Part shown: one piece after another, positions 27,001-33,000 of the stretch | Layout of the letters: each line of letters opens with the position of its first letter | Position numbering within the stretch: position 1 is the first letter of the stretch | Assembly: GCA_043826455.1 (NCBI GenBank) | Contig: JBDRQD010000015.1 | Coordinates: 96,001 to 160,000 of the forward strand | Reading direction: 5' to 3' | Source: Candidatus Bathyarchaeota archaeon | GTDB taxonomy: Archaea; Thermoproteota; Bathyarchaeia; TCS64 | Length of the DNA: 64,000 bases | Made by a program: the position numbers

Positions 27001-30000
27001 CCCAGTCCACGGCACCCCCGTCAGGATGGACACAGTCATTGCTGGGACGGACGTGGTGGCCACGGACGCCGTTGCGTGCAGGGTCATGGGGTTCACCCCG
27101 GACGAGATAGACCACATAGTGTGGGGCCACCAGTCAGGGATCGGCACCATGGAAGATGTTGAGGTTGTCGGGGACGGAGTGGACTCCGTCTGCCGCGTTT
27201 TCGCCCGGCTCTAGGACCTGACCGCATTCTCCTCGCTTATCTGCATGGCTGCGGTCGGGTACAGCGCCACCTCGGCGTCTGACCCGTGGACGTTCTCAAG
27301 CAGCTTCAACGCCTCTCCCCAGGTCTTGACCCACTGGCTGCCCTCGCCGTAGTAGTACTCGTCGGCCCTGGCGATCTGGGGGCTGACGCAGAGGACGCGG
27401 CTCATCCTCCACGGCTTTCGGAGGTACGTGGTCTTGGTCCAGCCTCTGCCTCCGTACTCGGTGCCGAATCGGCCGTTGTAGTGGTGGACCCTGCACCCCT
27501 CCGGGGTGTAGAGGAGGAACACCATGTCGCCGCCCTCCCGCACCGAGTCGTTGAGCAGGTAGTAAGCCTTGTAGCCCTCGTTGGCCATGGGGTAGCCGTT
27601 GCCGACCACTATGTCCGCGTCCCTCACCAGCTTCGTGGCGTAGTGTTTTCTGGCGATCTTCAGCCCGGCCCTGTGGGCGTCCACTAGGTCCCCGCAGACC
27701 AGGTCGGCAACGTCGCAGTCGCCGTTGAGGAACGCGTTGATGACGAAGTCGAAGCCCGCCATCCTGGCCGCCTCCTCGCTGTCCAGGCGCCGCACGTTCT
27801 CCTCGACCCTGCCGGGGCCCGTGCCCTCCCTTATCCTGTGGTTGTGAGTGATGGCGTCGATGCCTGCCACCCCCGGCACTATCATCTTGCTTCCGCCGCC
27901 GAACCCGTACCCGAAGTGGGGCATCATGACTCCCAGGGTGACCCGCATGTCGCACTCCATAACCTCCCTGTTGATGTGCACGGGAGTCCCGTGGCTGGTG
28001 GTGCCCAGGTCCACGGTGTTCTCGAAGCAGCAGTGGTTGAACACGAGGTACTTTTCAGGTGTCTCCGGGCCCAGCTTCTTCTGGAAGTCGAAGAGGAGGC
28101 GGCCGTGGTGGGCCCCCGTGGCCATCATGAACACTATCTGGTCGTCCCTTAGGCCCCCCTCATGGAGTTCGCCCAGCACCGCCGGCAGCATCTGGTACTG
28201 CTTTGTTGGACGCGTCATGTCGTCGAACACGATGACACAACGCTTCTTGCCCTCGGCCAGCTCGCTCAGCCTCGGAGTACCCACCGGGTGACTCAGCTTC
28301 TCTGCCACGAGTTCAGTTGACAGCTTGGGAGCGCTGTGACCCCTCATCCTTCGCTCATGTATCTTCCAACCGTCCGGGAAGACCAGTTCCTCCGGATTCC
28401 AGCCGTAGAATTCCCACGCCGGGACTTTGTAAGATTGCATGTATTATCCTTTGCTCCTGAGTTAAATTAACTCCCGCCTCCACAGACGCACGTAAACATA
28501 TGTTTAAACATATGTTTATATTGGTTTGAGTTTCACGATCCAATGAGAGACGGTGACGAAGACACTAACCATACGGGACGAGGTGTACAACAAGTTACTC
28601 ATGATCAAACGGGAGGACGAGAGCTTCAGCGACCTCTTCCTGAGGCTGTCAGAGGAGCAGAACACCACGCAGCTGCTCGAACAGCTTAGGGGCACGTTGG
28701 ATATACCTGACACCGAGCAGCTTCTGTCAGAGGTTAGGACAAGGAGGGCGGAGAAGAGGTATGATAGTCCTTGACACCGATGTCCTCATAGAGATACTCA
28801 ACAAGAGAAGCAGACGGGGTGAGGACGCCGTTGAGGTTCTAAAGTCGAGTGACGAGGACGTCGTCACAACCTCCATAGCCATCCATGAGGTCCAGTACGG
28901 CCTCGAGAAGAGGGGAAAGATGAACCCTGACATCCTCCGCCTGCGGGCCCTCCCCTACACCAAGGGCGATGCCCATCTCTCCGCCAAGCTGGAACTACTC
29001 GCGGAGGGAGACGGCACACCGATACACAGGATGGACGCCATGATCGCGTCCATCGCCATCAACAACGGCGCCAGGCTCTTCACATACAACTTAAGCCACT
29101 ACAAGCCACTGCAACAACACGGGCTGCAGCTGCTGGAAGTCCACTGATAACAATAAAAACCAATAAACTTAGCTAAAAGCAACTCGAAAAAATATCACAT
29201 TCTTCCACGCAGCTGTCATAGCCCCCTAATTCGCACAATTCCCAGCCACTGGGAACAAACCCTGGGCCCCCAAAGAACACCTCTAAAAACACCAAATTAC
29301 AAGTAGCTTGTAACAAAAGGTTGGGGAGGATTACTCCTCGATGATCTCCACGTTAGCCCTGGGCACAGTGACCACGCGGCCGTCCTCCAGCTCGATGTTC
29401 ACCACACGCACCATGCTCTCCGACTCCAGCTGCTGCAACTCTACTGGCAGGCTGTGAACCTTCCCTATGGCGCCGAAGTAGGGCTGCCGGATGATCCTGA
29501 TGGGCGTCCCCGGGACCATTCCGCTGGAGAGGGACTCCTCGCCGCCCTCCCGCCCCTTCAACTCGTGGGGGATGATGATCTCCGGCCTAAGGACGCCGGC
29601 CCTGATCTGGGTAGCGCCGTTGACGCAGGCCCTGTAGCCCTCGAAGTCCTTGAGGAGGTCAAAGGTGCGTTGGCTCATGACCATATTGCCGAAGCCCTCA
29701 GTGATGATCAGGGTGATGCCCACCTCCTCCTGGCCGGTGATGGCTACGCCTATCTCCTCACCTGTGAAGGCGATGAGGTCCTCATGCCTGATGCCTCCGC
29801 TGACGATGCCGGAGGCCCCCACCTCCACGGCCTTCCTGAGGGCGTCCAGGGTCACCCGGCTGCCTCCGATCAGGATCAGGCCCTTGTGCTCGGGCTTGAT
29901 CATGTCAGCGTCCAGCACCTGGTCGCTGCTCTCCACCATCATGTGGATGTCGCCGTGGGTCTCCCCGCCGATGCCGAAGATGCCCTGGATGAAGGCGGCG

Positions 30001-33000
30001 TTGGCCTCGATGACGGCGCCCTCTCTGGGCATCACCTCCACTACTGCGCCCGGGATGTAGGCGTCCACCTCCACCGGGATGGGAGAACCCCTGATGATGA
30101 CCTGGCCCGTGATCTCGCTGATGCTCTCGATGGTGCCCGTGACCGGGGTCTTGACTCTCTTCTTGATGAGGCCGAAGAGGGCCGTGTAGTAGGCGATGAG
30201 CTCATCCTTCTCCACCTTTTCCCCCAGCTGCTTCAACATGAACCTGGGTACGTCCTCGGCCTCCACTCCCAGGATCATGCCCGCCTTAATGATCTCGGGG
30301 TCTCCGCTGATCTCGGTACGAGCGATGACTTCGTCGTACTCCACCCTGTCCCCAACCTTGGGGAAGACCTCCCCCAGGATGGGGAGCCGCCTCATCTTCT
30401 CCACGCTCATGGACCGCTTGACCTTGAGGCCAGGCGTATAGGCGTGGGCTTCCTCAGTCTCCTTCTCGTTTCCGTTAGTCTTCTTTGCTTCTGCTTTCTT
30501 CACCATCTTAGATCAGCGCCTCCAGCTTGTCCGCGTCGTATAGATTCACTGACTTGAACCAGCTCAGTAAAAGCTCCTTCCTCTGGCTCTCGTTCTCCGG
30601 CAAGTACAGGGGTCTGCCGCGGGCATCCATCATGACGCCGGCTATGCCGCCGCTCACAGTGGTCTCAAGCTCCTTACCAGGGCCGGCGCCCACGTTGAAC
30701 TCCTTGGCGGGCGTAATCATGGCCTTCGCCTCCTCCCTCTCATGGAGCTCCACGATCTTGATCTCGCCGAAGTTGAGCTCCTCCTTCACGTGCTCACCGT
30801 TGGGCATGTCCAGCTCCACTGTCATGCAGAGCTCGCCCAGCTTTCCTGTGCCAGCGGCCGCAATGTTGGTTCCCATCCTGACCAGGCAGTCCTTGTCGAA
30901 GACGCTCCACGCCGCTTCCCGGTATACCGTGCTCAGGACGCCTATGTGGGGCATCATGAAGACGCTGTCCTGGAACATCCTGGTGACTCCCTCGGGGAGC
31001 CAGGCGTCGCTGAGGATGTACATGGCTTGGACTCGCCTGGGCGCATGGCTCAGGAGCCCGCCTGTGCCTGCGCAGATGGCGATGTTCATCATCTCTACGT
31101 AGCTGTCAGCCACAGCCTGCTCGAACATGTCGCTGATGGTTCTCTGCAGCTGTATGCCTTTGAGTCTTGTAGCGATGGTCCTGTGGTGGTGCAGGCCCAG
31201 TCTTAGGGCCTCGCGCGCCACTGAGTGCTCCACTATGAGGTCCTCCAGGGTCTGGGGGATGGTGGTGGGCCTGATCATCTTGTTCATGAGGCGGCTGGCT
31301 ACCTCCTCTTTGTCCAGGTTGAAGGGTATCCACCTCATGATGTTGTCGATGCCCGCCTCCTTCATTACGTTGGTGACGCTGTAGCTCATGCCTAGGTTGG
31401 CTGACACAGAGCGGACGAACCTGCCGTCCACCACCGAGTACACGTTGGTGGTGGCTCCGCCCAGACCGACGCCCAGCACGTTCTGCTTGTATGAGTTAGC
31501 GATAAGCTGCATGGCCATGCCCTCGCCCGCTGGCGTCGGCATGATGTCGACGTCCGTCCACTTCATTAGTTTCTGGTACCCTGGGGCGTGACTCATGACG
31601 TGCTCCATGAAGAGCTCGTGGACGGCGCGTCTAGCGGGCTCGGTGTTCTCCACCTCCAGGACGGGCCTGATGTTGTCCACCATCTGTAGGGCGAACCCCG
31701 ACTTCAGGAGGTTCTCGATCTCCTTCCTCAGGGTCTTGTTTCCAGCGTAGACGATGGGGAGGTTGTAGGCTACGCCAAGCCTGGGCTTGGGCTCTGCGGC
31801 CTTGATGAGCTCCGCTATCTCCATGACGTGGCTGCCGGCGCCACCGTCGGTGCCCCCTGCCATGAGGATCATGTCGGGCCTTAGGCTCCTGATCCTCCGG
31901 ATCTTCTGGTAGGGCTGTCTTCCGTCGTCTCTGGCGATGACGTCCATTACTATGGCGCCTGCTCCGAGGGCCGCCCTGTTGGCGCTCTCAGCGGTCATGG
32001 ACTTGATGAGTCCGGCCACCATCATCTGTAGTCCTCCGCCAGCGCTGCTGGTGGTACAGTAGAGGTCTACTCCCTTCTCCCCGTCGTAGGGCATTATTAT
32101 GCCTGAGCCGTCGGGGGATAGGAGCTTGTGGCCGGTCAACTCCTCGACTTCACGTACCGCGTTCTGAACTCCGAGGGTTACGTCCTCGTAAGGGGTTTCT
32201 ACGGTTGTGGGTGCTTCACCTGCCACCAGGAACCTCCACTCACCGTCCTTCAGGTGGAAAAACCTCGCCTTGGTGGTGGTGGATCCTACGTCAGTGACAA
32301 TGATGTACTGCATCTCCTCAGTCGGCTTCTTGAGGGTTGCCATGCTGTTTCATAAAGCGTCACGACTAATCATGCTTAAAGCTTTCTAATACGTTGGCCC
32401 AAACATGTAGGAGGATTTTGATTATCTTTTTTATTGGTGTGCTGTAGTCATAGGCTTCGGGGCGGGTGATCTGTCTAATGATAAAAATATTCGCCATTAA
32501 TTGATACCCCCCTACCTTTTTTCACATCCGGCTCACCTCCAGGTGCTTTTAGGCTTATCCCGTGCCAGCCGGGATTAAGCGGAAAACAAATTCCATCTTA
32601 TGCTTCATGCTTTTCCTTGATGAGGTGCCTCCTCGTCCTTGGCTCTGGAGCCCCAGAGAACACGGTTAACCGAAAACCTTGTAGTTGTATCAGAAGGGTA
32701 GCCAGCGCCGCCACCCTTTGCGCTCCTGAGGCTTCTCTGCTTCATCCCCCTTCTCCGGCTCGGGACTATCAGGGGGCTCCTCCTTGGGGGCCGCCTCCCC
32801 AGCAGGGGCCTCCAGCTCCTTGACTGGGGGCTTGTACTCGCCCTTGGTCATCTGCTCGAGGATCTGGATGAGCTTCTCTATGTTCTTCCTGTCCTCGAAG
32901 ACGTAGATGAGCTTCTCCCCCAGCATGTTGTACTGGGGGCCCAGGGCAGGCAGGAAGGGGGCTAGGACTACTCTGCTGAGTTCGCCGCCCACGTACACCA

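Follow-up and report, generated by a model that had tools for sequence, protein, structure and literature searches.

A long GlmL-like ASKHA ATPase and the unnamed protein encoded next to it form, with a probability that we put at about one half, a soluble module that binds nucleotide and belongs to a membrane system of seven to eight parts not described before. That the pair is functionally coupled to a cassette of four membrane proteins, one of them a DUF6754 protein, is very probable, and that it is the direct ATP-using part of one complex with this cassette is probable. A literature search, mostly without subscription papers and bioRxiv supplements, returned no description of such a system. 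The window (the whole 64,000-nucleotide stretch that was analyzed) carries the ATPase at 30508-32343 (611 aa) and the partner at 29331-30506 (391 aa), which starts one base after the ATPase ORF. Both lie on the minus strand, both genes are real, and the initial annotation had their coordinates right. The same strand encodes a small amphipathic protein, a candidate adaptor (32690-33130, 146 aa), and a 3-TM accessory protein found mostly in archaeal loci (33147-33572, 141 aa), followed in coordinate order by the cassette: protein D (33627-34346), a polytopic membrane protein of 239 aa without a family; protein C (34343-35194), in which an outward-facing alpha/beta domain with weak homology to DUF6754 sits between TM segments; protein B (35191-35877), polytopic, 228 aa and with no family above cut-off; and protein A (35891-36673), a DUF6754 (PF20539) member at 260 bits whose cytoplasmic alpha/beta domain, likewise between TM segments, is the predicted docking site of the ATPase. 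The first ATG of protein A is at 36634, and the reading frame stays open upstream of it. The profile built on the 141-aa protein also hits a divergent small membrane protein on the plus strand (36862-37389).

A second cassette in the window (10586-14710, minus strand) is without an ATPase pair. It comprises proteins A (12714-13532), B (12057-12707), C (11221-12057) and D (10586-11221), the small protein (13852-14241) and the 3-TM protein (14282-14710), and an M14 carboxypeptidase gene (14785-17274) is divergent from it. The genome as a whole holds eight four-gene DUF6754 cassettes and three ATPase-partner pairs, on contigs C15, C40 and C47. All three pairs had been credited with a 390-aa KOW partner; the pairs are present, but the C47 partner is 288 aa long and KOW-less. 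In the C47 ATPase the phosphate-1 and adenosine motifs are degenerate, and all eight cassettes lie on other contigs. RNA-library contigs of close relatives span pair and cassette, a coverage that says nothing on transcription or operon structure.

The window ATPase consists of an ASKHA core, a flavodoxin-like insert (residues 103-252) and an extra C-terminal beta domain (about 487-600). Its model (pLDDT 90.4) has the two-lobed actin/Hsp70 fold of the ASKHA group, and the phosphate-1 and adenosine motifs are present, with D18, S21, K25 and G428 unchanged across 108 aligned rows. The phosphate-2 aspartate is kept in 98 of 135 rows, while 37, the window copy included, have a glycine and a new Glu274. 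Judged from the alignment, the window clade appears to have relocated the phosphate-2 acid, D293G occurring together with V274E. The window ATPase has neither phosphate-2 aspartate, so its activity is something we infer. For the ATPase, DUF6754 and protein C, searching the PDB by sequence and by profile was unproductive. The C-terminal domain, barely covered by the fold searches, does not match the partner's domains. The idea that the insert mimics the DUF6754 domain was dropped, since the two show no profile likeness (0.2%).

GlmL/MutL (NF040745, PF13941) and Or-4 (NF040744) are accessory proteins of B12 mutases, and the window ATPase resembles them in its ASKHA core, flavodoxin-like insert and motifs, with about 28% identity over 470 residues. 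The 391 bits scored against PF13941 (cut-off 27) and the core and insert motifs common with true GlmL would fit a protein that simply reactivates a B12 mutase in the manner of GlmL and has the cassette as a chance neighbor. All three NCBIfam scores, however, fall under their cut-offs (NF040745, 216 against 475; NF040744, 219 against 600; TIGR01319, 142 against 204). True glmL lies between glmS and glmE and forms its own clade; on the unrooted tree, a long branch with support 1.0 sets five mutase-linked short forms apart from the 51 long ones. No client mutase was found either. Glutamate mutase E is above cut-off in none of the 79 genomes of the order, as had been claimed, in a search that saw no positive above cut-off for PF06368 itself. 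The aminomutase check, previously confined to the source genome, now extends to the order: the lysine/ornithine aminomutase barrel is in 0 of 79 genomes, and the search itself works, as 2 of 251 genomes of another phylum gave a positive. In the source genome OAM_dimer, methylmalonyl-CoA mutase and EutB are absent; the B12 dehydratase PF02286 was not found there, in a search that gave no positive in the control genomes either. The window ATPase also differs from GlmL/MutL and Or-4 in its extra C-terminal domain, a longer 390-420 loop, a dedicated partner and its tie to a membrane cassette. From the sub-threshold scores, the separate clade and the missing client we conclude, in agreement with the initial annotation, that this is not a B12-mutase reactivase. 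The reactivase reading is refuted for the clients checked and could be rescued only by another B12 radical enzyme with the same distribution; we give it almost no credence. The proposal that the ATPase was repurposed is not borne out, because long forms and mutase-linked short forms are sister groups and an unrooted tree leaves the direction of change undecided.

The partner has no Pfam or NCBIfam family above cut-off. Its earlier fold assignment was reproduced (pLDDT 91.3; Z 9.9 to the PTS enzyme I swivel, 8.0 to RnfC, 7.8 to NqrA and 8.1 to the NusG KOW). It consists of nested barrel-sandwich domains with a hydrophobic hairpin tip, a swiveling domain (170-314) and a KOW domain (327-391); a profile search of the PDB gave KOW and biotinyl-like matches only. 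Unlike the phosphohistidine swivels of PTS EI and PPDK, this swivel has no conserved phospho-His, again as first described: no His column exceeds 40% in 127 rows, and His241 occurs in 15. The same alignment holds no conserved Lys or Cys, and at the hairpin no Lys column exceeds 50%, so that the partner does not qualify as a biotinyl/lipoyl carrier. The natural fusions also hold up. PF13941 is present in 73 of 73 long partner matches, all of which align to both proteins, and ATPase and partner are in fixed association.

An ASKHA ATPase with a swiveling domain also describes DdrA/GdrA; according to PMC7674605, GdrA is an Hsp70-like ATPase with such a domain that acts by subunit swap. On this model the pair would assemble, reset or swap cassette subunits without powering each transport cycle. 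Both GdrA folds are found in the pair spread over two chains, DdrA matches the ATPase at Z 11.5, and the low ATPase:cassette copy ratio given below would suit a catalytic helper. The GdrA match to the partner, though, is marginal (Foldseek rank 50, E 0.027) and missing from the VIA top 50, and the insert has no profile likeness to the domain it would have to imitate. The likeness is at the level of fold only; the pair carries its swivel on a separate chain, together with the barrels and KOW, and no dehydratase was found. We consider a chaperone or remodeler unlikely.

Foldseek gives all of its top five places for the ATPase to acetophenone carboxylase, N-methylhydantoinase and acetone carboxylase (E 4e-11 to 2e-10), and the longest VIA alignment is to acetone carboxylase (349 residues, Z 13.1, rmsd 6.7). 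Hydantoinase A, the caprolactamase subunit CapA and acetone carboxylase beta combine an ASKHA fold with an inserted alpha/beta domain and an added C-terminal domain, as the window ATPase does. According to PMC8453981, hydantoinase, caprolactamase and acetone carboxylase each use their ASKHA subunit to phosphorylate the substrate. This raises the possibility of a membrane-coupled kinase or ATP-dependent amide activator that phosphorylates the incoming substrate, with the cassette as a group-translocation or membrane enzyme unit; amidohydrolases do border several cassettes. Yet PF01968 (hydantoinase A/oxoprolinase) reaches only 15.1 bits against a cut-off of 22.9 (E 0.014), identity to the group is 10-14%, and the partner is no HyuB-type metal hydrolase and lacks a phospho-His or carrier Lys. 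One ATPase per 6-7 cassettes that are about 30% identical suits a generic coupler better than a substrate-specific kinase, and we find the kinase or activator improbable.

The tie between pair and DUF6754 module, proposed from gene order, now extends beyond it through co-inheritance, which persists where the genes are unlinked, and a weak complex prediction. Among 251 genomes of a bacterial phylum, 214 have both partner and DUF6754, 31 neither, three the partner only and three DUF6754 only, an agreement of 245/251. Within the archaeon's own phylum the agreement is 201/201, the two being in the same four genomes and absent from 197. In its order, 73 of 79 genomes have both and one has neither; the five discordant genomes are all below 85% complete. 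The ATPase was absent in 5/5 genomes lacking both partner and DUF6754. In all five single-contig genomes tested, ATPase, partner and cassette occur in one copy each, 120 kb to 4.7 Mb apart. A fresh sample of 80 metagenome partner loci contained the ATPase in 66, the small gene in 36 and DUF6754 in 24; for the 35 loci of at least 10 kb the counts are 34, 23 and 19. Among 68 copies, the small gene lies with the ATPase only in 30, the cassette only in 25, both in six and neither in seven. Some observations weigh against our reading. None of the 73 long partner matches fuses the ATPase to a membrane protein, no fusion that would lengthen the small protein turned up, which is a weak test, and in the bacterial phylum 8/10 partner loci lack an adjacent ATPase.

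In a complex prediction of DUF6754, small protein and ATPase, the ATPase scored 0.54, against 0.00 for the best of three controls; this is a three-chain job unlike the calibration set, and no interface was given with the score. In the calibration, 116 of the 157 solved pairs and 2 of the 215 mismatched ones attain the mark. The value of 0.54 falls in the weak band: those that attain the mark with a score of 0.60 or under are only 18 of the 157 solved pairs but both of the mismatches. Runs share at least 88% of contacts, and pLDDT is 79 or higher. When DUF6754 was exchanged for a control while the ATPase and the small protein stayed, the score dropped to 0.00, which does not speak against contact between those two. 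Contact of the ATPase with DUF6754 is thus weakly predicted. DUF6754, a family without described function on which we found no paper in our literature search, is better conserved among cassette paralogues (34%) than the other three proteins (29-30%). Relatedness of proteins A and C is weakly supported, at 80% for full-length sequences and 47% for the soluble parts (reversed controls, 0.1%). A mirrored duplication pairing A with C and B with D was rejected, the B-D likeness being no higher than in controls. ESM Atlas held no usable match for protein C or one DUF6754.

Group II ECF transporters use one energizing module in trans with many membrane modules. By analogy, the ratios of ATPase pairs to cassettes (1:7 and 1:6 in genomes G162 and G275, 3:8 in the source genome) might reflect a common energizer, with one to three pairs serving up to 8-15 diverged cassettes. 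The analogy is one of logic; the pair's ATPase is ASKHA and no ABC ATPase, and no homology was detected. In the coupling we favor, the ATPase would dock on the cytoplasm-facing soluble domain of DUF6754, perhaps aided by the small amphipathic protein, and ATP turnover would drive a B/C/D channel through motions of the flavodoxin-like insert and of the swivel in the partner.

Among ASKHA ATPases, FtsA and PilM dock on membrane complexes. In VIA the window ATPase matches FtsA best (Z 14.9, rmsd 5.2, 261 aligned residues), with PilM at Z 12.4, so a cytoplasmic platform of this type has to be weighed, in an envelope, export or sensing machine whose cassette senses or handles the outside through swappable outer domains. 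Nine of 47 DUF6754 proteins are extended at the N terminus, in most cases with a signal-like segment ahead of the extra region, and in the bacterial phylum above the system is near-core, mostly single-copy and beside housekeeping genes. Against this, 8-15 diverged cassettes in archaea and the peptidase neighbors in the source genome favor uptake, and the cassettes scanned have no recurrent secretion or two-component gene among their neighbors. Unlike FtsA and PilM, the window ATPase has a flavodoxin-like insert, and its partner and cassette are unrelated to theirs. We therefore doubt this machine about as much as the kinase or the remodeler. Across 29 sources scanned with Rfam, none of the cassettes has a riboswitch, which weighs against our preferred reading; a single TPP riboswitch lies in a locus without a cassette, and a suspected lysine riboswitch was not confirmed in these loci. 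A sigma-70 promoter scan stayed at chance level, with a model unsuited to any archaeon.

For the energized membrane system that we prefer, the most likely job would be solute import, in this archaeal lineage probably of peptides, amino acids or amides. Peptidases or amidohydrolases occupy 7 of 16 cassette flanks in the source genome, whereas they make up 11 of 119 ORFs in the background (p 0.001). The enrichment is not seen in two other lineages: only 1 of 14 cassette flanks in G162 has an amidohydrolase, and 47 chosen neighbors in the bacterial phylum include one peptidase (NlpC/P60). We put importer function slightly short of even odds, and a peptide or amide as the substrate is a good deal less likely than that. 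To our knowledge, solute transporters powered by an ASKHA ATPase are not known.

Of the 79 genomes in the archaeal order, 73 carry the system, as do 214 of the 251 in one bacterial phylum. Databases name the ATPase 'glutamate mutase L', a label that leads metabolic reconstructions astray. Concrete, cheap tests are offered by the predicted docking site on DUF6754 and by the D293G/V274E swap. Tentatively, and with somewhat less confidence than importer function alone, we propose a new class of primary active transporter in Bathyarchaeia and several uncultured bacterial phyla, in which an ASKHA motor is common to interchangeable four-protein modules for peptide or amide uptake.

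Its nearest named relatives indicate that the window stems from a Bathyarchaeia-like archaeon. The long GlmL-like ATPase (611 aa; 30508-32343, minus strand; PF13941, 391 bits) is followed by a partner of 391 aa (29331-30506, minus strand) that begins one base past the ATPase ORF and matches no family over cut-off. The region upstream of the pair carries, on that strand too, genes for 146 and 141 aa and the DUF6754 cassette with its four genes. In total the genome holds three ATPase-partner pairs and eight DUF6754 cassettes, and a cassette adjoins two of the three pairs. The initial annotation described three copies of an ATPase, each with a 390-aa partner. 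Three pairs do exist, but on contig C47 the partner has 288 aa and no KOW, and both the phosphate-1 and the adenosine motif of the ATPase are degenerate. Because a partner form of ~300 aa is present in at least 34 of the 79 genomes of the order, the C47-type pair is a conserved second pair type, one that is probably inactive in this genome.

Several features surround the pair. Directly after the partner, a PIN-domain gene and a short upstream ORF (28552-29147, plus strand) are probably a toxin-antitoxin pair. The spacer at 28900-29330 shows a strong skew to A and C on its plus strand, resembling strand-skewed zones in other parts of this genome. A lactate-racemase-like (Lar_N) gene with an adjacent 276-aa gene (26384-28440) also follows the pair in several close relatives. 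At 36634-36679 (minus strand) the open frame of DUF6754 extends upstream beyond the first ATG and matches the N-termini of relatives, and an ATG behind the ribosome-binding site sits one base out of frame. A relative's contig runs across this region without a gap, which favours an alternative start over a slip in the assembly.

Only gene order had tied the pair to the DUF6754 module. Among related genomes, which are not independent and so do not make 500 separate events, partner and DUF6754 are both present in 73 of the 79 of the order, both absent from one (94% complete) and discordant in five, all <85% complete; they occupy the same 4 of 201 genomes of the archaeon's own phylum, agree in 9/9 in the phylum of genome G080, and in the bacterial phylum of G083 (251 genomes) are both present in 214, both absent in 31 and discordant in 6. 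In five single-contig genomes, picked because the partner stood alone, distances of 120 kb to 4.7 Mb separate the single-copy ATPase, partner, and cassette; in five genomes that have neither partner nor DUF6754, the ATPase is missing as well. Gene order therefore cannot explain the co-inheritance. The small gene bridges both sides: of its 68 copies, 30 adjoin the ATPase alone, 25 the cassette alone, 6 both, and 7 neither. At one locus (L111:6729-8423) DUF6754 and cassette protein B are apparently fused in one 564-aa ORF. In the G083 phylum, most cassette loci (L109:5890-6450, L121:6004-6468, L125:6146-6637, and others) have, just ahead of the small gene, a conserved two-TM protein of 150-180 aa without a Pfam match, which is likely a further member of the system.

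Hydropathy and the positive-inside rule assign DUF6754 a cytoplasmic soluble domain and protein C an external one, and the two share weak homology. A complex prediction of DUF6754, the small protein, and the ATPase scored 0.54 against 0.00 for the best control, and 0.00 when DUF6754 was replaced (contact agreement at least 88%, pLDDT at least 79). The mark is reached by 116/157 solved and 2/215 mismatched pairs, and at 0.60 or below by only 18/157 and both mismatches, counts that hold only roughly for a job of three chains run on custom alignments. The prediction hints that the ATPase may contact DUF6754. The link to the membrane module thereby rests on co-inheritance in trans and, tentatively, on a contact.

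The partner model (AlphaFold2, 127 rows) has a pLDDT of 91.3. Searched with VIA against 48,161 chains, residues 65-143 are a barrel-sandwich (RnfC, Z 8.0; NqrA, 7.8), residues 170-314 a swivelling domain (enzyme I, Z 9.9, rmsd 2.5, 105 aligned; RraA, 8.9), and residues 327-391 a KOW (NusG, Z 8.1). The hairpin tip of the barrel is hydrophobic. The alignment has no conserved His, Lys, or Cys column, which rules out a phospho-carrier or a biotin/lipoyl carrier. The partner is common: an E limit of 0.001 yields 2379 representatives. In all 73 long matches it is fused to the ATPase (named sources are Marinimicrobia, Planctomycetota, Cloacimonadota, and Ozemobacteraceae), and the ATPase gene precedes the partner in 62 of 68 testable copies in metagenome loci. 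A second fusion class (protein hits P0168-P0193) lacks KOW; several members have an N-terminal zinc ribbon (PF12674) and one an HTH. In five loci (L063, L066, L067, L071, L096) the small gene separates two different tandem pairs, whose partners have ~450 and 373 aa; this arrangement suggests a hetero-oligomer. A 259-aa protein after recR (L018:9920-10699) matches only the partner barrel (30%), with ATPase and cassette absent nearby.

The ATPase model (pLDDT 90.4, pTM 0.89, 108 rows) has the ASKHA fold and matches FtsA (Z 14.9), PilM (12.4), and DdrA (11.5). The roles of ECF and FtsA/PilM serve as comparison for the pair; we find it unlikely that it is an envelope or sensing platform like the latter. 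It is similarly improbable that the pair remodels the cassette in the manner of GdrA (excerpt of PMC7674605). Foldseek ranks acetophenone carboxylase, acetone carboxylase, and N-methylhydantoinase highest, and substrate phosphorylation, modelled on the ASKHA-type subunit of caprolactamase (excerpt of PMC8453981), likewise seems doubtful. Three positions covary without exception in 135 sequences: V/I274, D293, and D300 in 98, and E274, G293, and N300 in 37, the window copy included. The 37 form one clade (support 1.0, for the subset in the tree), so the variant arose as one event. From residues rather than coordinates, we interpret it as the relocation of a catalytic acid, which would have left phosphate-2 for the connect-1 helix.

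ATPase residues 103-252 form an insert of flavodoxin-like fold, which matches a B12-binding mutase subunit at Z 10.2. According to an excerpt of PMC4682846, MutL acts as the chaperone that reactivates glutamate mutase. A mutase reactivase is very improbable, as initially annotated. The ATPase scores far under the NCBIfam GlmL-type cut-offs, and nothing in the genome matches glutamate mutase E, lysine/ornithine aminomutase, methylmalonyl-CoA mutase, or EutB, nor diol dehydratase in a search that had no positive control. Across the order, glutamate mutase E exceeds cut-off in 0/79 genomes and the aminomutase barrel occurs in 0/79, the same search being positive in 2/251 elsewhere. True glmL, between glmS and glmE, encodes 461-467 aa, whereas the long form here has 611, and a long branch separates the two. 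Since this tree has no outgroup, 'repurposed' is not borne out, and the long form may predate the short one.

Peptidases or amidohydrolases make up 7/16 cassette flanks in this genome (nearest ORF of at least 150 aa each side of eight cassettes, counted by hand, two unscanned flanks scored negative) against 11/119 background ORFs from eight cassette-free regions (p 0.001; ~0.01 when the background is limited to ORFs with a Pfam match). Genome G162 has 1/14. In the G083 phylum, in which the system is near-core and usually present in a single copy, 47 chosen neighbours include one NlpC/P60. The enrichment does not generalise beyond this genome. Scans of the loci detected no riboswitch at any cassette; a TPP riboswitch (L071:12544-12651, minus strand) near a tandem pair is on the opposite strand and apparently unrelated.

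We found no description of this system in the literature, covered mostly through open-access sources. New here are the three-way co-inheritance in trans of ATPase, partner, and cassette, the tentatively predicted ATPase-DUF6754 contact, the putatively moved carboxylate, the neighbour count set against a background, and the second type of pair. Taken together, we give a probability of about 0.5 to an ATP-using module common to several cassettes that would dock on the cytoplasmic domain of DUF6754 and drive interchangeable membrane units, whose task would most likely be import.
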